The position numbers were made by a program, and so were the translations under genes. The notes under the pieces are model-generated. The model had not been told where the DNA came from. It made no database searches and saw nothing but the letters and a program-made list of their open reading frames with translations. A stretch of 64,000 bases of DNA from assembly GCA_039190745.1 (NCBI GenBank), contig JBCCXZ010000013.1, forward strand, positions 8,863 through 72,862, given 5' to 3'. This DNA comes from Planctomycetota bacterium (GTDB taxonomy: Bacteria; Planctomycetota; Planctomycetia; Pirellulales; Lacipirellulaceae). Positions 30,970 to 47,815 of the stretch are shown one piece after another; the stretch's first letter is position 1; each line of letters begins with the position of its first letter.

Positions 30970-31221
30970 GCGTTGCTCCTAGGACACCCTTTTCCAGCCC
31001 GCTTCGCAGGAAACTCTCTGGAAAGCTATAGGTCTGGAGAGCCTCGGGGGCCGGCCCTGACTCGTGGTTTGCCGAGGGCGGTTGCCCTCTAATCCGGGGA
31101 GTATACGGCTCAGCGTGGGCGGTTGCAACGTTCGCGGCGCGGGGGCCGGTTGGCCCCCAAAGCGGCATGGGATACGATCCACGACCCAGCCGACCAGCCA
31201 GATGCCCACCGACGGATCGCT

Positions 31222-31617
31222 ATGCAACACGAAATCGAGATCGAGGTCCGGTACTACGAGACCGACGGCCAAGGGGTGGTGCACCACGCCAACTACATGC
31301 AGTACTTTGAGCTGGCGCGGGTGAAGATGCTGCAGTCAATGGGCCACGACTACGCCGACCTCGAGCGAGACGGAGTGTTCTTGGTGGTCCACAGCATCAG
31401 CTGCCGGTACCACCGGCCGGCGTTGTTCGGCGACACGCTGCGCATCGTGACAAAGGTTGCCCGGGCGACCTTTGCCCGTATCGACCACACCTACGAAGTC
31501 TTCCGCAACGAAGAGCTGCTGGTCGACGGCAAGAGCACGATCGCCTGCATCGACCGCAACGGCAAGATCCGCCGGATTCCTTCGCATGTGCTGGGCGAGC
31601 CGGAAGAGCATCTGTAA
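31222..31617 (+). CDS. Acyl-CoA thioesterase (YbgC/FadM hot-dog family)
   Basis: VRYYETDGQGVVHHANYMQYFELAR. Confidence 0.88.
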   Translation: MQHEIEIEVRYYETDGQGVVHHANYMQYFELARVKMLQSMGHDYADLERDGVFLVVHSISCRYHRPALFGDTLRIVTKVARATFARIDHTYEVFRNEELLVDGKSTIACIDRNGKIRRIPSHVLGEPEEHL

Positions 31618-33662: not shown

Positions 33663-34400
33663 TCAGAAGGCCGATTCGCAGACCCAGTAGCCGACCGCAA
33701 AGATGCCGGCGTCCACGAGCACGTGGCTCAACCAAGGCCCCCAAAGCGAGCCGGTCTTGTGGTAGAGCCACGCCCAGAACACCCCGCCGACTGCTACGCA
33801 GAGCGAGAACACCCAGGTCGTGGGCGATGCCCAGCCAAAGTAGTGGGCGAGCACGATGACGTGGTGGGCCATGAAGCCGAGCGAGGAAACAACAACCGCT
33901 GCGGCCAACGGGACGTGTTTCGCCATCCGGCCGAAGACGAACCACCGCCAGTAGTACTCTTCCAGGAAGGCGTGGGCGGTGCTGCAGAACAACGCGAATG
34001 CGGCAAACTTGGCGGGCGAATCCAGGCCGAGCCCGAGCAGTTTTTCTTGCATGGGGCCGATTGCCGACTCGAAAACGCCCGCGGGCTCCAGGACATAGCG
34101 GAAGCCGAGCACGGCCCCGAGGAAGACGGCGCTTCCGAATGCTAACCCCGCCTTTGTGCCGGAGGTCGAGAAAGGCCATGGACGGGGGAGGCTCCCCACG
34201 GCGTACCAGACCCACGCGACCGGCAGAGCGAACTGGACTGTTTTCATCACTGCGTAGGCCTGCCGCTGAACGCCCGTTGCGGCGTCGGCCGCCCACACGA
34301 AGTAGACGAGCGTCACCAGGCTGGGCAGCAGCATGGCCACGGCGAGCACCGCTAGCTCGGCCCCCCGTGAGGGGGAGTGGCGGTCGGGGGTTTCTTGCAT
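33663..34400 (-). CDS. CPBP (CAAX/Abi) family intramembrane metalloprotease
   Basis: LEEYYWRWFVF, FMAHH, WLSHVLVD, multiple TM. Confidence 0.85.
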   Translation of the reverse strand: MQETPDRHSPSRGAELAVLAVAMLLPSLVTLVYFVWAADAATGVQRQAYAVMKTVQFALPVAWVWYAVGSLPRPWPFSTSGTKAGLAFGSAVFLGAVLGFRYVLEPAGVFESAIGPMQEKLLGLGLDSPAKFAAFALFCSTAHAFLEEYYWRWFVFGRMAKHVPLAAAVVVSSLGFMAHHVIVLAHYFGWASPTTWVFSLCVAVGGVFWAWLYHKTGSLWGPWLSHVLVDAGIFAVGYWVCESAF

Positions 34401-34555: not shown

Positions 34556-35728
34556 ATGCAATATGAACGCGTCTGCATCGAGTCCCTCGGCTACAGCCTC
34601 CCCCAGGAGGTGGTTACCAGCGATGAGATAGAACGCCGTCTCGGGCCCGCCTACGAGCGGCTCCGGCTGCCGGCCGGCCGGCTGGAGCTGATGAGCGGCA
34701 TCCGCGAGCGGCGGTTCTTCCCGCCCGGCACGCTGCCGAGCGACGTGAGCAAAGTGAGCGCCCGCCGGGCGTTGGAAGCCTCGGGGCTGGAGCCCGAGCG
34801 GATCGGGGCCTTGATCCATGGCTCGGTGTGCCGCGACGTGCTGGAGCCCGCCACCGCGTGCGCTGTCCACGAGGCGGTCGGCCTGGGTCCCAACTGCGTA
34901 GTGCACGACGTTTCGAACGCCTGCCTGGGCATCCTGACGGGCATGGTGCACGTGGCCAACATGATCGAGCTGGGCCAGATCGAGGCGGGCATTGTGGTGG
35001 GTACCGAGTGCGGACGCACCCTGGTCGAGAACACGATCCGGCTTCTGAACGAAGACGCTTCCATCACCCGCCGCGACGTCAAGCAGTTTGTTGCGTCGTT
35101 GACCATCGGCTCGGCCAGCGCGGCGGTGTTGCTCTGCAGCAGCGACGTCAGCCGCACCGGCAACCGCCTGCTCGCGGCACGGGCGGTCGCGCACACCGAC
35201 CACAACGCGCTCTGCCGCAGCGACGGCATGGACGAGTTCATGCGGACCGACAGCGAGCAGCTGATGCGCCGCGGCGTTGCCGCCGCGGCGGAGACGTTCG
35301 ACGGTCTGATGGGCGAGCTCGGTTGGCAGGCCGGCGGGATTCAAAAATCCGTGTGCCACCAAGTCGGCTCGGCGCACCGGAAGCTCCTGTTCGACCGCCT
35401 GGGGCTGAACCCCGAGATCGACTTCTCGACCTTCGAGACGCTGGGCAACACGGGCGCGGCGGCGTTGCCGACCACGCTGGCGATCGCGGCCGAAGCGGGC
35501 CGGCTCGACCGGGGCGATCAGCTGGCTTTGATGGGCATCGGCTCGGGGATCAACTGCCAGATGCTCGGCGTCGACTGGCAGGAGCAACGGGTATCCGGCG
35601 GCGAGTGGGGCGCTCAGGAGGCGACCGACGACGTGAAGAAGGCCGCGGTAAATAGAGAGGCCGTGCCAGAGCCCAAGATGCTCAAGCGCCAGGCGCTAGC
35701 CAAACGCGTAGAACACTACGAGCACTAA
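34556..35728 (+). CDS. oleA: OleA-type 3-oxoacyl-ACP synthase III family enzyme
   Basis: RLELMSGIRERR, LEPATA (Glu), SNACLG (Cys), SLTIGSAS, HQVG (His), LGNTG (Asn), GIGSGINC match OleA rather than FabH. Confidence 0.8.
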   Translation: MQYERVCIESLGYSLPQEVVTSDEIERRLGPAYERLRLPAGRLELMSGIRERRFFPPGTLPSDVSKVSARRALEASGLEPERIGALIHGSVCRDVLEPATACAVHEAVGLGPNCVVHDVSNACLGILTGMVHVANMIELGQIEAGIVVGTECGRTLVENTIRLLNEDASITRRDVKQFVASLTIGSASAAVLLCSSDVSRTGNRLLAARAVAHTDHNALCRSDGMDEFMRTDSEQLMRRGVAAAAETFDGLMGELGWQAGGIQKSVCHQVGSAHRKLLFDRLGLNPEIDFSTFETLGNTGAAALPTTLAIAAEAGRLDRGDQLALMGIGSGINCQMLGVDWQEQRVSGGEWGAQEATDDVKKAAVNREAVPEPKMLKRQALAKRVEHYEH

Positions 35729-37315
35729 CAACAGCAGCGACACGCCGACGCCGATGCCGACGTAGAGCCCTACGGGGGGGCCGTAACGCGGCCCGCTGTA
35801 GCCCGGCGGGCGGAGCGGGTCGATTTCGCCTGGGGCACGGCTCGGACGCTTCGAGACTGGGTCTTTGCTCCGCTCGGCCTCGAGCGCCTCTTCGATGAGC
35901 GACTTCTTCGGCTTCTTCGGCTCGGGCTTCTTGGCGACGGTGTCGATCGCCGAGGTGAGGTCGTCGGTCGGCGTGGCTGTCTGCGAGAGGACGCCGTGGT
36001 CGGTCGATTCGGTCGCCTTCGCGGCGTTGGACTTGGCAGGAGACTTCGCGGTCTTGCGTTGCTGAGGGGAGTCTTCCTCGAGGGGCGCGAGTTCGAGGTC
36101 TTCTTCGTCGATCTGCGGCACGGGCGTGCTACGGCCGCCGGAGGAGCCGCCATCTAATACGCCGCTGCCGCTGTCGGTGCCCGCCTTGCTGAGCGCCGCG
36201 GCGAACCGGCCGTAGATGTCGCTGCCGACGCCGTCACTGCCTCCGCCTGGCTTGGCGGTCGACCCGCTCGCCACGTCGACGCCACGGTCGGCGAGCCAGT
36301 CCGCCATGCGGTCGGCGACTTCCTGGGCGGTCTGGTACCGGTCGGCCGGGTTCTTGGCCATCATGCGGTTGCAGATGGTCACCAGGCTCGGCGGTGCGTC
36401 GGGGCGGTCGATCAGGATGCTCGGGGCCTCGTCGCGTTGGTGCGCGAGCAGCCGCTCGGTGATCGTGCCCTCTGGGAATGGCGGGTGGCCGGTGAGCAGG
36501 AAGTAGAGCGTGCAGCCCAGGCCGTAGATGTCGGCTCGCTCGTCGGCGCCGTGGCTGTCGCGGGCCTGCTCGGGGGCGAGGTAGTCGGCCGTGCCGAGCA
36601 CGTTCTCGTTGTTGTCCATCGTGAGCGACGCTTCGTCGCCGATCAGCCGGGCGAGGCCCATGTCGAGCACTTTGACCGTGCCCTTGGAATCGACCAAACA
36701 GTTCGCGGGCTTGATATCGCGGTGGACGAGGCCCATGGCGTGGGCGTGCGCGAGCCCCCGCGCGGCCTGAGCGATGTAGTTTGCTGCCGTGTTGTAGTCG
36801 AGCGGCCCGTTCGTCTTGACCAGCACGTGGAGGTCTTTGCCGTCGACGAACTCCATGACCAGGTAGTGCGTCTTGCCGTCCTGGTCGAAGTCGTAGATCC
36901 GGACGATGTTGGGGTCGTCGAGCTTGGCGGTGGCGCGGGCTTCGATGCGGAAGCGTTCGAGGTAGGTGGCGTCCTCCACTCGGCTCGAAGGCAGCACCTT
37001 GATGGCCACCTTGCGGTTCATGAGGGTATGCTCGGCGGCGTAGACGCTGCTCATGCCGCCCTTGCCGAGGTGGCCCAGCAACTTGTACTTTCCGAGCTTG
37101 AAGCCCTTGTACTTGCCGGCCAGCAGCTTATCGACCTGCCACTGAGTGAGGATGCCCTCTTCGATGAGGCGCTTGGCCAAGTCCTCTTGGGTGTCCGGCA
37201 GATCGCCGCCCGCCTTCTCGCGGATTGCGGAGAGCGCCCGTTCGAGCTGCTCGTCCTCGACGAGCTGGCTGCGTCGGATCAGTCCTACAAAGCTGTCGGA
37301 CACCGTTTTGGTCAT
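35696..37315 (-). CDS. Hanks-type Ser/Thr protein kinase with C-terminal TM
   Basis: LGKGGMSSVY, VAIKVL, HRDIKPAN, DMG, GTADYLAPE, DIYGLG. Confidence 0.93.
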   Translation of the reverse strand: MTKTVSDSFVGLIRRSQLVEDEQLERALSAIREKAGGDLPDTQEDLAKRLIEEGILTQWQVDKLLAGKYKGFKLGKYKLLGHLGKGGMSSVYAAEHTLMNRKVAIKVLPSSRVEDATYLERFRIEARATAKLDDPNIVRIYDFDQDGKTHYLVMEFVDGKDLHVLVKTNGPLDYNTAANYIAQAARGLAHAHAMGLVHRDIKPANCLVDSKGTVKVLDMGLARLIGDEASLTMDNNENVLGTADYLAPEQARDSHGADERADIYGLGCTLYFLLTGHPPFPEGTITERLLAHQRDEAPSILIDRPDAPPSLVTICNRMMAKNPADRYQTAQEVADRMADWLADRGVDVASGSTAKPGGGSDGVGSDIYGRFAAALSKAGTDSGSGVLDGGSSGGRSTPVPQIDEEDLELAPLEEDSPQQRKTAKSPAKSNAAKATESTDHGVLSQTATPTDDLTSAIDTVAKKPEPKKPKKSLIEEALEAERSKDPVSKRPSRAPGEIDPLRPPGYSGPRYGPPVGLYVGIGVGVSLLLLVLVVFYAFG

Positions 37316-37715
37316 GAATGGTTTACCAACTACCACGCCCTCCGCCGCCGGGGCCTCCGCGAAGGCGGAAGCCCTTTCGGTGTTGGGACGCTTCGTTGTT
37401 CTGGGAACGCGATGATCGCGCCCCGGAAAAGGTGCTCTTTCTCTGTTGGGGGCTGTGGCTCCAACACATAGGGCCCGTGCTTCCCTGCCCCGTCGCTTCC
37501 TGAAACCCTTGCAACTGGTTGGACTCGGTAGTGTTGCCCGCGGGAACTCGGTAAACCGGTTTGCCGCGTGCTAGGTAGCCGCCTCCGGCTTCGATGATAT
37601 CACAGCCCCGCTGCTCAGGCCATTATCTCCGGGTGCGTCGCGGCATATTCCCGAGCAACCGCCCGTGGAACCATCCCAGTCCGTTCAATCGCGCACAGGA
37701 CACTTCGGATTACGA

Positions 37716-38525
37716 TCAGCGGTCGTCCGCAGAGGGTCGCACGAACTGCTCGTCGAAGTAGTTGACGCCCATCCCAGCGTCGATCACGAGGCTCTGGGCG
37801 TTGATGCCGCTAGAGCGGGGGCTGAGGAGGAAGGCCGTCGCCGCGGAGACTTCTTCGGTCTGCACAGCCCTGCCGCGGAGGGTGGCCCGTTCGGCGTAGA
37901 GGTAGGAATCGACGTAACCCGGGATGCCGGCGGAGGCTGAGGTCTTTAGGAGCCCGGGGGCGACTGCGTTGAACCGCACTTCGGAGAAACGGCTGAAAGA
38001 CTTGGCGAGAAACACAAGGCTCGAGTCGAGCGCCGCCTTCACAGGGGCCATGAATCCGTAGTTCTCCGCCGCCATTCTCGTGGTAGAGATAGAAACCGCC
38101 ACCACCGAGGCGTCGCTGGAAAACTGTTTCTTTAGAGCATTGGACAGGGCAACCAGGGAAAAGCAGGAGATGTCGAACGCACGCTGCATTTGGTTCCGAC
38201 TGGTCTCGTGGAACGGCTGAGGACCACCCTCGTAGTCAGCGAACGCGATCGAGTGGGCCAACCCGTGGAAGCCGTCGTAGGCGCCGGCGAGTTCTTCGGC
38301 GAGGCGGTCGATCTGGTCCTGGTGCTCGACGTCGCAGACGTGCACCGGCGAGCCTGCGAGCAGCTTGGCAGTCGATTCGAGCCGCTGTGGTGAGCGGACG
38401 ACGTAGACCACCTCAGCCCCGGCGTCCCGCAGGTCGCGGCCGACGTGGTAGGCGACGCTCTTGCGGTTCGCGACGCCGAAGACCACGATCCGGCGGCCTT
38501 CGAGTTGGAGGAAGTCAGTTGGCAT
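37716..38525 (-). CDS. fabI: Enoyl-ACP reductase (FabI-like SDR)
   Basis: [16 protein letters not shown], catalytic Y-x6-K (YGFMAPVK), TSASAGIPG. Confidence 0.85.
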
Positions 38526-38533
38526 TCGGAGGA

Positions 38534-38724
38534 TTCACCACGGAGACACGGAGGGAGAGGGAGTGCTGAAATGAGGAGGAAGGAAGTTTCCTAACTGTGG
38601 GAGGCCTCTCCGAGGCCGATTTCGGAATCGTAGCAAAGCGGAATCGGGCTCGGAGAGCCCTCCCACAAGGACAAGATTGAAAATCCCTCATCCGTCTCCA
38701 CGCCCACCGTGCCTCTGTGGTTAA
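38534..38724. repeat. Inverted ACCAC(A/G)GAG-CACGG repeat pair enclosing a REP doublet
   Basis: TTCACCACGGAGACACGGAG (38534) versus reverse complement TTAACCACAGAGGCACGGT (38706-38724). Confidence 0.65.
38596..38667. repeat. REP doublet, copy 3
   Basis: TGTGGGAGGCCTCTCCGAGGCCGAT ... ATCGGGCTCGGAGAGCCCTCCCACA. Confidence 0.9.
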
Positions 38725-39173
38725 CTCCCCTCAGGCTCGGCCACCGTGCAGGCGAACTCGCAGCGGCAGGCCACTTTGCCGTCGACGGTTACTTTGCCCT
38801 TCATGAAGTAGGCGTTGGCCAGGCGGTCTGTGAGCTCGACGTCGATCTGGATCGTGTCGCCGGGGCGGACCATCTTCTTGAACTGCACGTTGTTCAGCCG
38901 GGTGGCAACCGGCACGCCGCCGGCGTTGCCCTGGCCGGCTTGGGCCTCGACGGTGATCTTTGAGAGCAGCACGGCTCCCGCTTGCAGCGACGCCTCGCAG
39001 AGCAGCACCCCGGGCGTGAGCGGGTAGTCGGGGTAGTGGCCGCGGTACCAGAACTCGTCGCCGCTGAAGGTCTTGCGGCAGACGATGTGCTTGTCGTCTT
39101 GCTCGACGATCTCGTCGACGAGCAGGAACGGCTCGCGGTGGGGGATGGCGGCTTGGATCGCTTCTAGGGTCAT
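38721..39173 (-). CDS. fabZ: 3-hydroxyacyl-ACP dehydratase (FabZ family)
   Basis: IPHREPFLLVDEI, GHYP..PLTPGVLLCEA, FKKMVRPGD. Confidence 0.88.
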   Translation of the reverse strand: MTLEAIQAAIPHREPFLLVDEIVEQDDKHIVCRKTFSGDEFWYRGHYPDYPLTPGVLLCEASLQAGAVLLSKITVEAQAGQGNAGGVPVATRLNNVQFKKMVRPGDTIQIDVELTDRLANAYFMKGKVTVDGKVACRCEFACTVAEPEGS

Positions 39174-39180
39174 TCGGATT

Positions 39181-39293
39181 TAGCCACAGATGGACGCAGA
39201 TGAACACAGATTAAGAAAGGAGATTGAAGCCACACAACAGTCTGGACGGAACGCCGTAACTTATCTGCGTTTATCTGTGTCCATCTGCGGCTA
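39181..39293. repeat. Inverted array of 10-bp CACAGATGAA-like units
   Basis: TAGCCACAGATGGACGCAGATGAACACAGAT ... ATCTGCGTTTATCTGTGTCCATCTGCGGCTA. Confidence 0.8.
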
Positions 39294-39304
39294 TTCTCTT
39301 CCCA

Positions 39305-40762
39305 CTACGACGCCACTTCGCTGACACTCTCGGCCGGGCGGGAGCTGCCGGTCATCAGTTCGTTGTCGACGTCGCTGGCGACCATGCGGCCGTAGTTCAT
39401 CGCGCCCAGCCAGCCGGACATGATAATGCCGACGCTGCCGGCGTGGTAGAGACCGCGGACCTGCTCGGGGATCGAGCGGCTCACGGCGAGGCCCTCGAAC
39501 TTCGTGCCGAAGCTCGCCCCCGCGACGTGGTGCGTGTAGTGCTGGAACGTCCGCGGCGTAGACGCCTCGACGTGGTCGACGCGGTCGCGGATGTTGGGCA
39601 CGTACTTGTCGAGCGCGTCGAGCGTCGTCTCGCAGAGGTCGGCTTTGCTCGCCTTGTATTCGTCGTCCGGCAGGTGGGCCCAGTCGTCGTAGTTGGCGTT
39701 GGTGCTGGAGACGATCAGGCAACGCGGCTTCCCCTGCGGGCGGGTCCGCGGGTAGTAGAACGAGTACGTGCGGCTGGTGATGTCGCGGGAGAGCAACAGG
39801 TCGGTGCGGAACAACGGCGCGGTGGAGCTGAACAGCAGGTCGCCGGTCGACTCGTCGATCCGCTCGTCGGGCTTCAGCGCCATGTAGACCTGAGTGCTGC
39901 TGTTGTTGAGCCGCACGGCCTTGGCGTTGTCGACGAAGTTCTTGTCGAACTTGTCCTCGCCAATCAGGCGGAAGATCGTTTGCTTGAGATTGGCGTTGGA
40001 GACGACCGCGCGGCACTTGATCCGGCGGCCGTTGACCTCGACAGCGCGGACGCGGCCGCCGTCGCAGTCGATGCGCTCCACGTCGCAGCGGATGCGGATG
40101 TCGACGCCACTCTTCTTGAGGTCGGCTTCCATGAGCTCGATGAGGTGGTCGGTTCCGCCCTCGAAGGTGAAGACGCCCTTGGACATAAAGTTGCTGAAGA
40201 CGATGCCGTAGCTGATGGCGGGGTCTTCGAGCGTGCTGCCGTTGGCGTAGGTGATGGGCTCCATCAGCAGCCGGATGACGTCCTCGCGGCCGGGGAAGTA
40301 CTTGTCGAACAGCTCGCGCGTGGTGGTCTGCTGGTCGTCGTAAAAGTCCATGCCTCGGGCCTCGTCGAAGAAGCCTTGCACGGCAGCCGGCTCGACCTTG
40401 AAGTGCTCGATGAGCAGCTTGGTGAAGTCCTCGCGGTTGAACGAGGTGGTGAGCGAGAACATCGGGTTGTCGAACCGGATGCCCTTGAGCTGGACGATGC
40501 TGTCGGCGATCTCACGGGTCCAGTAGCGGCGGCAGCTCTTGACCATGCCGTAGGGGAATCCGTGGAGCGAGACGTCGAAGATGTGCCCGCCGGGCCGTTT
40601 GAACCAGGTGGCCATGCCGCCGAGCTTGTAGTGCTGTTCGAGGAGGATGACGGAGTAACCGGCGCGGGCGAGGATATTGGCGGCGGTGAGCCCGCCGAGG
40701 CCGCTGCCGATGACGGCGACGTCATACTCGTCCTTGGCACCTGCTAGAAAGTCTTTGGGCAT
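39305..40762 (-). CDS. Phytoene desaturase (CrtI)-family FAD oxidoreductase, copy B
   Basis: VIGSGLGGL Rossmann motif, [22 protein letters not shown]...GASFG. Confidence 0.85.
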
Positions 40763-40842
40763 GAGTGCTGCTTACGCTGCTCGTTCGCGAAATCGAAACC
40801 CCGATGGTATCCGACCTGGGCCGCCGCGGTAAGGCTCGGCAC

Positions 40843-42219
40843 TCACCGCAAACAGTGCTGGTTCGCCATGCCGATGCCGCTGACGATGCTGCCGATAATG
40901 CCCACAAAGCCCTGGTCGGTGCCGCAGACGAAGAGGTTCTCGAGGTGCGTCGTGCCGTCGAGCTGTTTCTCGGGGGCGCCGTAGATGGCGCCGTTGTCGT
41001 GGCCTGTGAAGCGGACAATGGTGGTCGGGGTGAACATGTCGGTGTCCACCACGCGGTGGCGGTAGTCGGGCACGAAGCGGCAGGCCGAGTCGGTGATGCG
41101 GTCGTACCAGCGGAGCTTCTCCAGGCGGTACTCTTCCTCGGGCAGGCCGGCCCAGTGCTCGAAATTCGCCAGCGCCGTGATGCGCATCACGCCGTCGGGC
41201 AGCGGCTCGTCGTAGACGAAGTTGTTCGGGCTGCAGATCACGCCGCTGCGGAGGTCGCACGGCTCTTCGGGCGGCTCCCAGGCAAACTTGTCGCAGTCGT
41301 TGTAGAAGGTGATCGTGCGGTCGTGCCCCACGTCCTGCGGCTGCACGTCGAGCGAGGCGATCGTCTCGCAGAACGTCAGCCGCCCCGGGCCGCGATCGGT
41401 CGGGGGCTGCGACGCGTTGCCGCAGAGCCGCATGGTTTCGACCCAACCGGCCGAAGAGAGCACGCGTTTGCCTTCGAGCCGCTCGCCCGACTGAAGGACG
41501 GCGCCCACGATTCGGCCGTCTTCTACCTCTAGCCGATCGACGCCGGCGCGGAGCTTCAATTCGCCGCCCAGCCCGCGGAACTTGCGGACGAGTTGCTTCA
41601 GGATGAGCCGCACGCCCGCGTGCGGGCGGCCAAGGCCCTCCATGAAGATGCTGCGGAACATGATGGAGAACTGCCCCCAGTCCATGTCGTGCTCGCGGGC
41701 CGAGCCGTAGAACATCAGCGGGCAAAAGAGCATCTCGACGAGCAGCGGCTCGCCGAGGATCTCGTTGAGCCGCTCGCGGGCGGAGATGTGCTGGTGCTCC
41801 TCAGCGAGGTCGTCGTACTCGACGATCGCGTCGATGAGCCGGTCGAAGTTGGCGGCCTCGCCGGGGAAGGCGGCGGCGATCTCGGAGCGGAGCAGGTCGA
41901 GGTCGTTGTCGAACCGGAACCGCGCACCGGGGAAGACGACCTCGGAACCGACCTGCGGGGAGATCTCCAGTTCGTCCCAGCCGATGCGGAGCTGCCGCAG
42001 CAGACGCGCGAGCGGGCCCTTCTTCGTGCCCTTGGGCGTAATGTTCGTGAGCGCGTGCAGGCCGACGTCGTAGTCGCGGCCGCGGAGGCGGTAGAAGGAG
42101 TTCAGCCCGCCGATGGTGTAGTGCCGTTCGAGGATGCAGACGCGCTGGTCGTAGTAGGCCAGGCGGATGCCGGCAGCCAGGCCCGACATGCCGGCGCCGA
42201 TGATGATCGTGTCGTACAT
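40843..42219 (-). CDS. Phytoene desaturase (CrtI)-family FAD oxidoreductase, copy A
   Basis: MYDTIIIGAGMSGL, LERHYTIGG, YDVGLHA, FTPTTI...GAIYG. Confidence 0.85.
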   Translation of the reverse strand: MYDTIIIGAGMSGLAAGIRLAYYDQRVCILERHYTIGGLNSFYRLRGRDYDVGLHALTNITPKGTKKGPLARLLRQLRIGWDELEISPQVGSEVVFPGARFRFDNDLDLLRSEIAAAFPGEAANFDRLIDAIVEYDDLAEEHQHISARERLNEILGEPLLVEMLFCPLMFYGSAREHDMDWGQFSIMFRSIFMEGLGRPHAGVRLILKQLVRKFRGLGGELKLRAGVDRLEVEDGRIVGAVLQSGERLEGKRVLSSAGWVETMRLCGNASQPPTDRGPGRLTFCETIASLDVQPQDVGHDRTITFYNDCDKFAWEPPEEPCDLRSGVICSPNNFVYDEPLPDGVMRITALANFEHWAGLPEEEYRLEKLRWYDRITDSACRFVPDYRHRVVDTDMFTPTTIVRFTGHDNGAIYGAPEKQLDGTTHLENLFVCGTDQGFVGIIGSIVSGIGMANQHCLR

Positions 42220-42300
42220 GGGCGTCGAGAGTGGTTGGTCGTGGGGGTTGGGAGGGACAAGCTGACGAGCAGTTGCTCCCACTCCCTGCTCCCGCTCCCA

Positions 42301-42561
42301 CTACACCTTCTGTACGTCCTTCATGAGCGGCTCGAGGTACGTCACGGTCGACTGCATGCTGGCGAGGTTCACGTAGTCGTCCTCGGGCACCTGGACGCGG
42401 TGGCGCTTGCGGAGCTCCATGACGATGTCGAGGAAGTCCATGCTGTCGAGTTCGAGCTGCTCGCGGAAGCTCACCTCGTCCTTGAGGTCGGTGAGGTCTT
42501 CGTCGGGGGCAATGGACTCGAGGATGTCGAGGATCTCTTCGCGGATTTCGGGGGGTGTCAT
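42301..42561 (-). CDS. Acyl carrier protein
   Basis: Acidic 86 aa, LELDSMDFLDIV with the phosphopantetheine Ser; AGGAG RBS. Confidence 0.92.
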   Translation of the reverse strand: MTPPEIREEILDILESIAPDEDLTDLKDEVSFREQLELDSMDFLDIVMELRKRHRVQVPEDDYVNLASMQSTVTYLEPLMKDVQKV

Positions 42562-42622
42562 CTGACGCTAACTCCTCCTGCGGGCCGGCGTCCACGCCGG
42601 CGTGTGGGTCGGGCGGGGCTCG

Positions 42623-43864
42623 CTAGGGCTTGGCGACGATCAACACCGAGTTGATGCCCAGCATGCCGAACGAGTTGTTAAGGATGTACTGGATGGGCTG
42701 CTCGCGGGCCTCGTTGAGCACCAGGCCGGGCAGATCGCACTCGGGGTCGAGGTTGTCGACGTTGATCGTCGGGTGGCAGACGCCGTCTTCGAAGCTTGGG
42801 AGATTGCCGGCGAGTTCGAGCGAGCCGGCGGCTCCCATCGCGTGGCCGATGAAGCTCTTGGTGTTGTTGATCATGGTGCGGTCGCTGCCGCCAAAGACGC
42901 GTCGCAACGCCTCGCACTCTTGGATGTCTCCGCTGGACGTGGCGGTGGCGTGCGTGCTGACGATGTCGATGTCTTCGGCGTTTAGCCGGGCCCGTTGCAA
43001 AGCGAGCTCGATGCAACGAGACTGCTGGTCGGGGTTGGGGAGGACGAAGTCGCTGGCGTCGCTGTTCATGGCGTAGCCGACGATCTCGCCGTAGACTTTG
43101 GCGCCGCGTCGGCGGGCAACGGGCAGGCGCTCCAGCGTGTAGAGGCAGCCGCCCTCGGAAACGACGATGCCGTTGCGGTCGCGGTCGAAGGGGCGTGAGG
43201 CGAGCGCCGGGTCGTCGTGCTCGGCCAGTGCGCCCTGGCTTGCGAAGCCGGCGAAGATGCCGAACGTGTGGATGCTCTCAGAGACGCCGCCGGCGATGGC
43301 GAGGTCGCACTCGCCAAGGGTGAGCATCTGGAGCCCTTGGATCAGGCCCGCGTTGCCGGCGGCGCAGGCTGCGCCGAGCGTGTAGTGGGGGCCGGTGATG
43401 CCCATATTGAGCGAGATCTCGCCCGCGGGGTTGTTCGCCACGGTGCGGGGGTTGTGGTGGTGGGACCACACCTTCGTGTCGTAGTCGAAGGCTTTGATTT
43501 CGTTGATCTCGTTCTCGGTCTCGACGTTGCCGTGCTCGGTGACGCCGATATAGACGCCGACGCGCTCACGGTCGGTGGCGTCCCAGTCGACGCCGGAGTC
43601 GGCCACGGCCTCGCGGGCGCAGAAGATCGCGACGCCGCCGGCGCGGGTGCCTCGGCGGACCTCCTTGCGTTTCTGGTACCGCAGCTCGTCGAAGTCGCAC
43701 TGGCCGGCGAGCGTCTTGCCGACGTAGCGGATCTCGTAATCGCCCACGCCGCTGCGGCCTGCGAGCAACGCCTCACGGTACTCCGAGAGGGAGTTGCCGT
43801 TGGGCGAGGTGAGGCCGACGCCTGTGATCACGATGCGCTGGTCGTCGTTGGCCGTACGGATCAT
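42623..43864 (-). CDS. Beta-ketoacyl-ACP synthase (FabF/FabB family)
   Basis: RIVITGVG, AACAAG (Cys), STHATAT (His), KSFIGHAMGAAG (His), NNSFGMLG. Confidence 0.92.
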   Translation of the reverse strand: MIRTANDDQRIVITGVGLTSPNGNSLSEYREALLAGRSGVGDYEIRYVGKTLAGQCDFDELRYQKRKEVRRGTRAGGVAIFCAREAVADSGVDWDATDRERVGVYIGVTEHGNVETENEINEIKAFDYDTKVWSHHHNPRTVANNPAGEISLNMGITGPHYTLGAACAAGNAGLIQGLQMLTLGECDLAIAGGVSESIHTFGIFAGFASQGALAEHDDPALASRPFDRDRNGIVVSEGGCLYTLERLPVARRRGAKVYGEIVGYAMNSDASDFVLPNPDQQSRCIELALQRARLNAEDIDIVSTHATATSSGDIQECEALRRVFGGSDRTMINNTKSFIGHAMGAAGSLELAGNLPSFEDGVCHPTINVDNLDPECDLPGLVLNEAREQPIQYILNNSFGMLGINSVLIVAKP

Positions 43865-43976: not shown

Positions 43977-45269
43977 TCAGCGGCGTCGGGGCTCGGTTTC
44001 TAAGTGTGCCCGGTATTGCTCAGCTTGGGTCTGGCGGCCGAGGCGTTCGGTGATCGCCTCCCAACGCTGGGCGGCAACACGCAGGCTTTCGGCGGGTTGC
44101 GCATCACCGGCTGCGGCCGCTAGTACGGCTTCGCCCAAAGCCGCGGCGTACTCGTCCCAGCCGGCGATCCGCGGGAGCAGCAGCGGGCGCTCTACTAGGA
44201 GGCTCTCGGCCGCTGCTTCGGCGGCCCCCGGCCAAGCACTGACGCCCGGCCAGAGGTTTGCCTGCTCGATTTGGGAGCGTCGGAAGAACAGCGTCTCATC
44301 GCTCGACGAACTGAGCTGGGCGGCCGCGTCGCCGCTGGCCATCCACCCCAGCAGGCGGAAGGCCGAAGTCGCGTTCCGAGAGTCGGCGCTGACCGAAGCC
44401 ACCCGGCCGCGGTAGCCCAGCAGCGTGACGGGCCCGCGGCTCGTCGTAGAGCGCCACTTGTCGGTGACCTCGTCGTAGACCTGCGGCTTGCGCTGCAGAG
44501 ACTCGGCGGCGGGCACCCCTTCGGGCGGCTCGCCCCAGAGAGCGGGCCATCCCAGCTGCCATGTGGGTAGATCGTTGGCGGTTCCTCCCGGCGGACGAAG
44601 CTCTGCGGCCAGATTCCCAAGAGCACGCTCCATGACCGGGGTCGTGAGCCGCGGCCGCATCGAGTCGGGGTCGAAGAGCAATGCGTCGGTCCGTCGCTCG
44701 GGCAGCAGCGCGAGAGCCCGCGCGATCAGTTCGTGCGCAAGGGCTGTCGGGTCGGTCGCGCCACTCTTCACCGCCGTACCGTTAAGGCGCATCAGCGGCG
44801 GCAAGCCTAAGGGGACGGCAACCGTTTGGCCGTCGAAGACCATTGCCGGCCGGACCGCGGGCAGGAGATCGCCGTAGTCGAAGTCGTCGTCATCGAGAAC
44901 GGAGTCTCGCACCGGGCGGAGCCAGCCGCGGCCGTGCAAGGCGCCCGTAGCGGACGGCGGGTAGATCAACACGTCGGCGGGCAGCGTTTCGGACTCGAGC
45001 AGCTCGGCGAGCGAGGCCTGCTCGACGCGCAGTTCGGCGCCGGCGCGCTCGGCCCACTCGCCGCGGAGGCGGCCCAAGGCTTCGGCGACCACACCGTCGC
45101 CGACGACCAGCACGCTGAGGTTGGCGGCTCTTGGGCGGGGCTTGCTCAGGGCGCTGCTCGGCGGGGGCGTCGCCTCGCGCTTGCCGCAGCCCAGGGAGCA
45201 GAGCAGCAGACAAACCGCCAGCGCAAGCCGCTGACACCCAACGGCGTGCCTAGAATTGATGGACCGCAT
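43977..45269 (-). CDS. Extracellular solute-binding-like lipoprotein
   Basis: Lipobox SLGC, DVLIYP, WLRPV, C-terminal WEAITERLGR..Q..QYR typical of SBP family 1. Confidence 0.65.
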   Translation of the reverse strand: MRSINSRHAVGCQRLALAVCLLLCSLGCGKREATPPPSSALSKPRPRAANLSVLVVGDGVVAEALGRLRGEWAERAGAELRVEQASLAELLESETLPADVLIYPPSATGALHGRGWLRPVRDSVLDDDDFDYGDLLPAVRPAMVFDGQTVAVPLGLPPLMRLNGTAVKSGATDPTALAHELIARALALLPERRTDALLFDPDSMRPRLTTPVMERALGNLAAELRPPGGTANDLPTWQLGWPALWGEPPEGVPAAESLQRKPQVYDEVTDKWRSTTSRGPVTLLGYRGRVASVSADSRNATSAFRLLGWMASGDAAAQLSSSSDETLFFRRSQIEQANLWPGVSAWPGAAEAAAESLLVERPLLLPRIAGWDEYAAALGEAVLAAAAGDAQPAESLRVAAQRWEAITERLGRQTQAEQYRAHLETEPRRR

Positions 45270-45341
45270 GTGTTTTCCGAATGCTGCGATTGGACGACAC
45301 GCACAGGGCGCCTAAGCTGGCGTGGCAGGCAACCATTCTCT

Positions 45342-45415
45342 TGTGGGAGGCCTCTCCGGGGCCGATTACGGCTCGGGATACTGAGCGTAATCCGGCTCAG
45401 AGAGTCCTCCTACAG
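45342..45415. repeat. REP doublet, copy 4
   Basis: TGTGGGAGGCCTCTCCGGGGCCGATTACG ... CGTAATCCGGCTCAGAGAGTCCTCCTACA. Confidence 0.85.
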
Positions 45416-45479
45416 AATCACTCGTTTCAAGACTAACGCCGGAATGGGCCTCCGCGAAGGCCTCGTGAGAACGCTGCCG

Positions 45480-47122
45480 ATGGACGCCGGTCCCCCGCCA
45501 CAACCGACGCTCATCATCCGGCTGGCTGAGGTTGCGCTGATCACGGCGGTCTTCTGGATCGAGGGCGGAGCCCCGGCGCCGCACGTCAATGAGACGTACT
45601 ACTTGGTGAAGGCCCAGCACTATTGGGACCCCGGGTTCTGCGCGGGCAACCGGTTCCTGGAATCCGCCGACGCCCACGAGACGTTTTATTGGAGCGTCGG
45701 TTGGCTCGCTCAGTGGGTCTCGCTGCCCGCGGCGGCTTGGATCGGGCGGGGCCTCTGCTGGAGTCTGCTGGCGTTTGCCTGGCAACGGTTGAGTTGGGGG
45801 GTGGCGCCGGTGCGGTTCGCCTCGGTGCTTTCGGCGGCGCTGATGGTGTCGCTGGTCGGGCAGCTGCACTTCGCCGGGGAGTGGGTTGTGGGCGGGGTGG
45901 AGAGCAAGTGCTTCGCCTACCCGCTCGTGATGCTGGGACTGCACTGGATCGCAGAAAACAAATGGAACCGTGTCTGGCCGGCGCTCGGCTTGGCGGGGGC
46001 GTTCCATCCGCTGGTGGGGGGTTGGTCGGTACTGGCCGCGGGGTGCGTCTGGCTCACCGAGCCGGCAGACTCCCGCCCTGCCCTCCGCGGGATGGCGCCG
46101 TGGATCGTCCTGGGCGGCGTTCTCTCCCTGCCGGGCCTGTGGCCAGCGTTGCGGCTGAACGCGGGCGTCTCGCCGGAAGTCGCCCGGGAGGCGGCCCGGA
46201 TCTATGTGTTCGACCGATTGGCGCACCACTTGGCGCCGCTCAGCAAGCCGGGGTTCTGGATTCTCGACCGCGCCGCGCGGCACGCGGTGATGATCGTGCT
46301 GTTCGTCGTAGCGTGGCAGTGGCTGAAACCGCGGGCGGCAGCGCAAGGCTTGGAGAGGGTCTGCCGCTTCGCCGCGGCGACGCTGCTGTTCAGCGCGGCG
46401 GGCTTAGCCTGGGAGACGGCGACGGCCGGGGACGAAACGCTCGCCGCTTCGCTGCTCCGGTACTACCCTTTCCGGATGGCCGACGTTGCGCTGCCGGTCG
46501 CGGTGGCGTTGGCCGCCCCGGCGGTGCTCGTAGCGGTCGACCGCCGCACGCGGTACACGGCGCCGGCGACCGTGCTGCTCTGCCTGCTACCGGCCTGGCA
46601 CTTCAGCAGTGTGGTCGCAACACGGCTGGTCGACCCGACCGCGCCGGCCGACCGCGGCGTGCTGCTGCCCGACGACTGGGTCGATGTCTGCCGTTGGACC
46701 CGGGAGAACACGCCGCCCGACGCGGTGTTCCTCGGCCCCCGCAGCGGCCAGTCGTTCCACTGGCGGGCCGGGCGGGCCGACGTGGCCAACTGGAAAGACA
46801 TCCCGCAGGACGCGGCGGGGATCGTCGCCTGGCGTCGGGTCTGCCGCGACCTGTTCGAAGGGGTCGACGAGGCCGGCCACTGGTACACCTTCTACTCGTT
46901 GGCGTCGCAGGGCACGGCCAAGGTCGCCGACAACGCCTACCGCTACGGAGCAGACTTCGTCCTCACCGAGCGGTACCCTGTGCTGCAGTTGCCGGTGGTT
47001 TACGGCAACGGGTCTTACACGGTGTACTCGGCGGAGGCCGCCCTGCCCGCTTCTGGACTCCGGCCCCCCCAAACCGAACCTCCTGCGATTCCGCCGCCGC
47101 GCCAGACCGAAGATACCGCCCC

Positions 47123-47126
<4 letters not shown>
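45480..47126 (+). CDS. Multi-pass membrane protein (DUF6798-like)
   Basis: PHVNETYYL, AGEWVVGGVESK, FHPLVG, RLAHHL, C-terminal soluble WKDIPQ domain; start approximate. Confidence 0.7.

Positions 47127-47815
<689 letters not shown>

Follow-up and report, generated by a model that had tools for sequence, protein, structure and literature searches.

The window analysed here is a stretch of 64,000 nucleotides from a Planctomycetota bacterium of the family Lacipirellulaceae (contig JBCCXZ010000013.1 of assembly GCA_039190745.1), and the present study concerns a six-gene operon on its minus strand. The operon encodes a beta-ketoacyl-acyl carrier protein (ACP) synthase (KS), an ACP, two flavin adenine dinucleotide (FAD) proteins of the CrtI/amine-oxidase fold, designated FP1 and FP2, a FabZ-type dehydratase and a divergent FabI-like enoyl reductase (Table 1), with intergenic gaps of 61-195 bp. 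The six co-directional genes that the original prediction had placed at 37716-43864 were all found, and their classes were confirmed by Pfam and NCBIfam profile searches. For FP1, the ATG start was chosen that agrees with the start in its homologues. In scans of regulatory sites, 0 promoter-like sites were found against 0.6 expected, and 8 terminator-like sites against 7.4 expected. The six genes are hereafter called the cassette.

Table 1. Features of the six-gene operon, its neighbours in the window, and the ole homologues elsewhere in the source genome
Feature	Coordinates	Strand	Size, profile match and remarks
KS	42623-43864	-	413 aa; PF00109/PF02801; 327.6 bits vs fabF cut-off 493.75
ACP	42301-42561	-	86 aa; PF00550; under every AcpP cut-off; Ser40 in DSMDFLDIVME
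FP1	40843-42219	-	458 aa; PF01593; CrtI/amine-oxidase-fold FAD protein
FP2	39305-40762	-	485 aa; PF01593; second CrtI-fold FAD protein
FabZ-type dehydratase	38721-39173	-	150 aa; PRK00006, 114.3 bits vs cut-off 113
FabI-like enoyl reductase, divergent	37716-38525	-	269 aa; PF13561; ~150 bits, under every FabI cut-off
OleA-family head-to-head condensing enzyme	34556-35728	+	PRK09258, 429 bits vs cut-off 285; converges on the operon, ~2 kb downstream
Ser/Thr kinase	35696-37336	-	PF00069; between the FabI-like and OleA genes
oleB homologue	contig C1:107101-107967		45-57% identity (range for oleB, oleC and oleD) to related-locus copies
oleC homologue	contig C1:122680-124311		same identity range
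oleD homologue	contig C1:121548-122540		same identity range

The catalytic motifs of the operon are retained. In the KS, Cys167 and His341 are invariant in 53/53 aligned rows and His305 was read in the sequence of this protein; the Cys167/His305/His341 triad is intact, as the original prediction had stated, and so is the DSM motif of the ACP (Ser40, 21/21 rows). The dehydratase has His46 and Glu60 in 87/87 rows, the latter presumably being the FabZ-like residue found where FabA has Asp. The FabI-like enzyme keeps Tyr156 and Lys163, and at the position where a pocket Tyr is expected it carries Ile146, all three in 65/65 rows, whereas the housekeeping copy has Tyr at 146. In addition, the KS shows the family-specific motifs TEHG (109-112), HHHN (135-138) and SFGM (398-401) in all 53 rows. 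As judged from these alignments, the polar TEHG and HHHN motifs and Ile146 of the reductase may reflect an altered substrate selection. The KS is a dedicated beta-ketoacyl-ACP synthase, and the ACP is a private carrier.

FP1 and FP2 both retain the GxGxxG motif and are ~24-25% identical to each other, with homology over the full length (hhalign, probability 100). Both score far under the models of the carotenoid enzymes: the best NCBIfam model of FP1, TIGR02730 (CrtH/CRTISO, cut-off 586.9), gave 86.0 bits for FP1 and 89.1 bits for FP2; the best model of FP2, TIGR02733, gave 107 bits against a cut-off of 549.7; and TIGR02734 (CrtI, cut-off 238.1) gave 53.3 and 89.2 bits, respectively, so that both fail. 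In a quick tree with supports from the Shimodaira-Hasegawa-like approximate likelihood ratio test (SH-aLRT) only, in which the deep branching among groups is not settled, FP1 (13 rows) and FP2 (18 rows) form separate clades with a support of 100 each, and the 8 crtI-family rows form a clade of their own (99); a grouping with true carotenoid desaturases, which the original prediction had named as evidence against itself, was thus not seen. The likeness to the ladderane clusters of anammox planctomycetes, also drawn in the original prediction, holds at a distance only: one genome of our sample (G026; L274 and L275) has two type II fatty acid synthesis (FAS II) clusters with CrtI-like genes, in an order that agrees by eye with the published anammox clusters, and their two CrtI-like proteins are 21-25% identical to the flavoproteins and belong to a different clade. 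The predicted models of FP1 and FP2 (predicted local distance difference test, pLDDT, 92.1 and 90.9) both have 4REP, a gamma-carotenoid desaturase, as best fold (template-modelling (TM) scores of 0.74 and 0.73; 16% and 18% identity) and also match 4DGK. The models confirm the FAD-binding CrtI/amine-oxidase fold, and a fold of this kind fixes no reaction. Neither flavoprotein shows a transmembrane segment (highest hydropathy over 19 residues, 1.44). One metagenomic protein of 625 aa (P0123) is a fusion of FP2 to a FabZ-type dehydratase. A search of plasmids for an orthologue of the flavoproteins gave 18 records; identity nowhere exceeded 47%, nor 26% for matches close to full length, and there was no orthologue among them. 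The closest plasmid-borne outgroup flavoproteins (L288, L289 and L290; 24-25% identity) have as neighbours a ketosynthase (Streptomyces), an acyltransferase and an AMP-ligase (Persicobacter), and a nonribosomal peptide synthetase (NRPS) and a phosphopantetheinyl transferase (PPTase; Bacillus cereus), a context which suggests that this branch of the flavoprotein family often serves carrier-protein pathways.

The gene that converges on the operon matches PRK09258, which we take to be the OleA family, and it is read as OleA because relatives place such a gene before oleB-C-D (L112, L116, L118, L120, L124 and L181). The surroundings of FP2 were compared in 180 FP2-anchored loci, comprising the best 80 of 594 genome matches, 20 regions picked by hand from 61 FP2-positive genomes so that distant families were represented, and the top 80 of 557 matches in metagenomes; the loci are not independent, and L181 and L226 share one arrangement. 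All six genes were found in 65/180 loci, which argues that the operon block is not due to chance. At least one ole gene was present in 75/180 loci and all four in 11/180, and among the 41 complete six-gene loci that span 19 kb or more, 37 also carry an ole gene. This linkage occurs in several gene orders. In many Pirellulales loci, oleCD precede the KS and oleA follows the FabI-like gene; oleAB come directly after the latter in L117, L126 and L212; oleABCD are divergent from the cassette in L112 and L116, or are followed by an unannotated gene and then by the cassette in L118, L120 and L124. In L181, whose FP2 is named from Smithella sp., there is one run of KS-ACP-FP1-oleABCD-FP2-FabG-FabZ-FabI, and in L179 (Halobacteriovoraceae) an inverted KS-ACP-FP1-oleABCD block lies beside FP2-FabG-FabZ-FabI. 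The range of the cassette thus reaches the Bdellovibrionota, with the Halobacteriovorax-type loci L179 and L237 and proteins of Bacteriovoracaceae.

According to the original prediction, no phytoene/squalene synthase, chain-length factor, FabG or radical SAM gene is nearby. This stands for the flanking open reading frames scanned, which gave no FabG, chain-length factor or phytoene/squalene synthase, and for the window scan, in which the sole radical SAM match is a MoaA-type gene 32 kb off; among the relatives it does not stand for FabG, of which a dedicated copy, lacking in the source genome, follows FP2 in 27/180 loci. The operon block has a single, canonical KS with an active Cys and no radical SAM gene, and, as judged by eye from the sequences, none is among the recurrent neighbours; nor do the conserved neighbours include a recurring electron-transfer partner. 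A type II polyene polyketide synthase (PKS) of the aryl polyene type was considered and rejected, since there is no pair of KS and chain-length factor and no second KS-like gene recurs in the loci. Several further features of the loci were observed. A gene of ~200-250 aa lies directly upstream of the KS in seven distant loci (L115, 5190-5954; L114, L118, L120, L122, L124 and L127); it looks by eye like a DNA-binding regulator, although at the thresholds applied neither Pfam nor NCBIfam gives a match for it. Two tandem oleA-KS pairs precede FP1-FP2 in L227 (3019-8390), either a duplication or an assembly artefact. The gap between FP1 and FP2 often holds inserts of 2-4.5 kb, and in some genomes FP2 stands alone with the rest elsewhere (L079, L075, L023, L003 and L222).

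A single sample of 301 Planctomycetota genomes served to determine the distribution of FP2, the cassette KS, oleA and pfaD, a gene of the Pfa polyunsaturated fatty acid (PUFA) synthase. FP2 was found in 61/301 genomes (60 at E <1e-160 and one partial match; 53-79% identity in the other genomes), and the KS orthologue in the same 61; oleA was present in 109/301 and pfaD in 48/301. First, FP2 is accompanied by oleA in every one of its 61 genomes and by pfaD in none. Second, 47 of the 48 pfaD genomes also have oleA, and exactly one supplier, FP2 or pfaD, is found in 108 of the 109 oleA genomes. The exceptions are G002, which has a divergent OleA and neither supplier, and G299, which has pfaD and no oleA match; divergent OleA-like genes were observed in G002 (C81:4081-5127) and as second copies in G043 (C266:30264-31253) and G062 (C60:56678-57670). 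Third, of the families, 8 have the flavoproteins only, 17 have Pfa only and 2 are mixed (22 and 2 genomes, respectively, in f4; 2 and 4 in f49); a further family, f30, gave no FP2, oleA or pfaD match in 23 genomes. In the family of the source genome, FP1 is present in 60/61 and pfaD in 0/61, and none of five named genomes with the flavoproteins has pfaD. Fourth, pfaD-pfaA-pfaBC lead straight into oleA-B-C in 4/5 pfaD genomes inspected, the position held by the cassette in the genomes with the flavoproteins; in G272, no pfa-ole block was found within 39 kb around pfaD. The gene fabA was absent from five of five genomes with the flavoproteins (0/5), and some oxygen-dependent desaturase match (PF00487) was found in 4/5; G132 has cassette genes and oleA, yet no PF00487, fabA or pfaD match.

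These counts can be set beside published hydrocarbon data. Lacipirellula parvula, whose FP1 orthologue (P0019) is 80% identical, is an unpigmented facultative anaerobe with n-C31:9 at 2.8% as its sole listed hydrocarbon, and the table of its components lists no PUFA (PMC6995999). From the family sample given above (pfaD 0/61), we infer that L. parvula has no Pfa. The hydrocarbon C31:9 is widespread in planctomycetes (PMC3327967), and the route given for it in the literature consulted requires the Pfa synthase (PMC3098273, PMC6463001): Shewanella needs the Pfa-derived 16:4n-3, while Xanthomonas-type Ole systems take ordinary fatty acids as input (PMC6463001), and Shulse and Allen list Pfa-like clusters among planctomycetes for Gemmata and Planctomyces limnophilus only (PMC3098273). 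Since 61 of the 109 oleA-bearing genomes have no pfaD and do have the cassette, the cassette would name the missing supplier for C31:9. In Desulfotalea psychrophila, C31:8 and C31:9 were found without Pfa and an adjacent gene pair, DP2405/DP2406, was noted by Rattray et al., who in 2009 proposed an anaerobic FAS II route to PUFA via CrtI-like enzymes (PMC2649909). Javidpour et al. reported in 2016 that the Kuenenia proteins showed no phytoene desaturase activity (PMC4790861). No description of the cassette was found in a search of main texts, few of them from subscription journals, and the passages covered of a paper on planctomycete carotenoids have nothing on it (PMC9907078).

Herein, we propose that the operon is probably a private type II fatty acid line that supplies polyunsaturated acyl-ACP to OleABCD in place of the Pfa synthase. 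The gene content, the intact catalytic motifs, the linkage to ole genes, the co-occurrence with oleA and the exclusion of pfaD support this proposal. The linkage and the exclusion strongly support the dissociated, Pfa-independent route to polyunsaturated chains on ACP that the original prediction had put forward, although it overlooked both the OleA gene of the window and OleABCD as the destination of the chains. That the cassette feeds OleA is very likely; that it does so with all-cis 4,7,10,13-16:4, for C31:9 as end product, is likely. The KS, ACP, FabZ and FabI-like enzyme, with FabG in many relatives, would build the 16:4 chain, and OleABCD would join such chains into the C31:9 olefin; for FabD, FabG and presumably a PPTase, it would depend on genes outside the cassette in the source genome.

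By derivation from the chemistry of Pfa, the construction of all-cis 4,7,10,13-16:4 from C2 units needs a repeat of three cycles: one ends in full reduction, one moves the trans-2 bond to cis-3, and one turns it into cis-2. In Pfa, the double bonds are set by dehydratase/isomerase domains, and a FabA-like domain is seen in the Pfa cluster L165. The only dehydratase of the cassette is a Glu-type FabZ and none of the five cassette genomes has fabA; hence two cis-setting steps are left without an enzyme, and two flavoproteins without a job. This favours redox-neutral isomerases over desaturases, and CrtI-fold desaturases make conjugated chains. We regard it as an even chance that FP1 and FP2 act as redox-neutral isomerases on trans-2-enoyl-ACP, independently of oxygen, with one forming cis-3 and the other cis-2; FP1 is predicted to act on enoyl-ACP. 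Such isomerases would substitute for the Pfa dehydratase/isomerase domains, and reduction by the altered FabI-like enzyme would be confined to every third cycle, giving the programme of C4 reduce, C6 cis-3, C8 cis-2, C10 reduce, C12 cis-3, C14 cis-2 and C16 reduce.

Several points weigh against this proposal. The OleA tree, a quick tree of 65 labelled rows picked from those available, sorts by supplier, with 27/28 Pfa-partnered OleAs in one long-stemmed clade and 2 label changes. The pattern is therefore one of two whole modules replacing each other in few independent events; the exclusion may mean just that a genome keeps one ole module, and Fisher p values for it overstate its strength. The sorting also fits an OleA that has co-adapted with the ACP from which it takes its chains, a suggestion made for Pfa (PMC6463001). 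The cassette is scattered in some genomes, and oleA lies within 16 kb of FP2 in 26/61, although the co-occurrence of FP2 and oleA outlasts the loss of linkage. The ole homologues score under the narrow equivalog cut-offs set for OleB, OleC and OleD; the ole copies of L181 have the OleC and OleD models as best matches, yet likewise fall under such cut-offs. One cassette-bearing species is tied to C31:9, and by its FP1 alone, and oxygen-dependent desaturases (PF00487) are matched by 5 genes of the source genome. On the chemical side, the solved folds closest to the predicted models share 16-18% identity with them and belong to desaturases rather than isomerases; the formation of cis products is uphill and requires the pull of a selective KS, and a single KS must take saturated, cis-3 and cis-2 substrates without a chain-length factor.

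The alternative that survives best leaves the cassette as supplier of OleA and gives the flavoproteins redox chemistry, either as dehydrogenases that add double bonds to unsaturated acyl-ACP, which is the chemistry proposed by Rattray et al. for CrtI-like genes in the FAS II clusters of anammox bacteria and Desulfotalea (PMC2649909), or as a dehydrogenase and reductase pair that makes a polyene and then de-conjugates it. The nearest folds and sequences, 4REP and 4DGK, are indeed desaturases, and some sources label FP2 homologues as retinol 13,14-reductase. However, CrtI-type desaturation extends a conjugated system and yields trans polyenes, whereas the double bonds of 16:4 are methylene-interrupted and cis; moreover, the lack of a recurring electron-transfer partner among the conserved neighbours and the separation of the flavoprotein clades from the anammox clade speak against it, and we consider this alternative unlikely. 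Slightly less probable again is a cassette that feeds OleA another chain, whether saturated, mono-unsaturated, conjugated or otherwise modified, with C31:9 made by oxygen-dependent desaturases or another route. The OleAs of the genomes with the flavoproteins are a lineage apart from the Pfa-partnered ones, the desaturase matches mentioned above could serve such a route, and Xanthomonas-type Ole systems do run on ordinary fatty acids. Against it, a private ACP, KS and reductase would be superfluous for ordinary chains, the anaerobe Smithella is among the bearers of the cassette, and G132 combines cassette genes and oleA without any PF00487, fabA or pfaD match; the profile of L. parvula, with C31:9 as the only listed hydrocarbon and no listed PUFA, also disagrees with it.

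The remaining alternatives, which assign the flavoproteins to carotenoid or hopanoid pathways or take the operon for housekeeping FAS II or a ladderane-type cluster, draw on the CrtI-family annotations and on the anammox clusters that place FAS II genes beside CrtI-like genes, but they are already largely refuted and very improbable: the source genome (3.9 Mb, 95.5% complete) has no squalene/phytoene synthase (SQS_PSY, PF00494, present in 3/5 genomes searched) and no crtI-family gene over the cut-off, and true crtI-family pairs occur in the Pfa-type genomes G277 and G297 and are absent from G003 and G161, which have the flavoproteins; a separate housekeeping set is present (fabD-fabG-fabF on C10, fabI on C15, fabZ on C6 and C85), so that the operon is not the sole such set, a case which the original prediction had counted as evidence against itself, the cassette KS, ACP and FabI-like enzyme fall under the housekeeping cut-offs and the KS is confined to 61/301 genomes; and a ladderane-type cluster is contradicted by the absence of radical SAM genes and of a second, non-canonical KS and by the clade of the anammox-type proteins.

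Other genes of the window and of the source genome, whose nearest named homologues are from Lacipirellulaceae, are as follows. The Ser/Thr kinase between the FabI-like and OleA genes has a match in 23/100 loci, at the same position mostly in close relatives, and is probably a lineage-specific passenger. A CPBP protease (33663-34400), matched in 10/100 loci, flanks oleA together with the kinase in close relatives. A 4HBT hot-dog thioesterase (31123-31617, plus strand) lies 3 kb from oleA; its fold class is that of PfaT/Orf6 of pfa-ole loci, and it is absent from the 45 most recurrent neighbour clusters. Upstream of the operon (44826-47815, plus strand) are a DUF6798 membrane protein and a HAD hydrolase, and the other genes of the window, lpxA, lpxC, topA and the MoaA-type gene, are all ordinary. 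No fabA or pfaD match was found in the source genome, and the best match of a PfaA query is a modular type I PKS of 2681 aa (C21:2889-13079; ~30% identity), which is not Pfa and adjoins an adenylation enzyme and a flavin-dependent gene.

The cassette is real, conserved and undescribed so far, and it is probably an acyl-chain module of the Ole pathway that stands in for Pfa. The downstream pathway is known and the product is probably known, and any new chemistry would lie upstream. The further claim is about as likely to hold as to fail: a third route to PUFA beside oxygen-dependent desaturases and Pfa, in which seven small soluble proteins, with the flavoprotein pair as ACP-dependent cis-3 and cis-2 isomerases, make an omega-3 16:4 chain without oxygen in Planctomycetota, Bdellovibrionota and Smithella, and which accounts for C31:9 in planctomycetes without pfa. 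With the cassette, six or seven small genes suffice for a direct test of the anaerobic FAS II route to PUFA proposed in 2009. Should FP1 and FP2 set cis bonds on ACP, this would be new chemistry for the CrtI fold, the system would be far simpler than Pfa for studying and engineering the programming of double bonds, and its genes would be a genomic marker for reading C31:9 in sediments.

Among known systems, the closest in role is the combination of PfaA-E with OleABCD, which makes hentriacontanonaene (C31:9) in Shewanella and Geobacter bemidjiensis and has counterparts in the type I/J clusters of Gemmata and Planctopirus (PMC6463001, PMC3098273, PMC4882568). Like Pfa, the cassette lies beside or inside oleABCD, comprises KS, ACP, ketoreductase, dehydratase and enoyl reductase activities, co-occurs with oleA, and is found in a species for which the same product is reported. 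Unlike Pfa, it consists of small stand-alone proteins with one ACP and has no chain-length factor, acyltransferase or FabA-type isomerase; a FabI-like enzyme replaces PfaD, two CrtI-fold flavoproteins are added, the OleA belongs to its own lineage, and the cassette never occurs together with pfaD in the 301 genomes. The clusters of Kuenenia (kuste3336, kuste3607) and D. psychrophila (DP1860, DP2405, DP2406), on which the 2009 proposal was built (PMC2649909; PMC4790861), resemble the cassette in their CrtI-like flavoproteins amid FAS II genes and in the idea of PUFA without Pfa. In addition, D. psychrophila makes C31:8 and C31:9 and has an adjacent CrtI-like pair, DP2405/DP2406. These clusters differ in that they include radical SAM enzymes as well as a non-canonical FabF, and the parts of those articles covered draw no link to ole. 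With the carotenoid enzymes CrtI, CrtN, CrtD and CrtH/CRTISO (TIGR02734, TIGR02733, TIGR02730; 4DGK, 4REP), the flavoproteins share the FAD-binding amine-oxidase fold (TM ~0.73 to 4REP), but they differ in scores of 53-107 bits against cut-offs of 238-587, in 16-18% identity, in their separate clades and in a genome with no isoprenoid precursor synthase. Finally, oleA-D are common to the cassette genomes and to Xanthomonas and Stenotrophomonas, where OleABCD works with housekeeping FAS II, whereas in the cassette genomes a dedicated acyl-chain line is attached to it.

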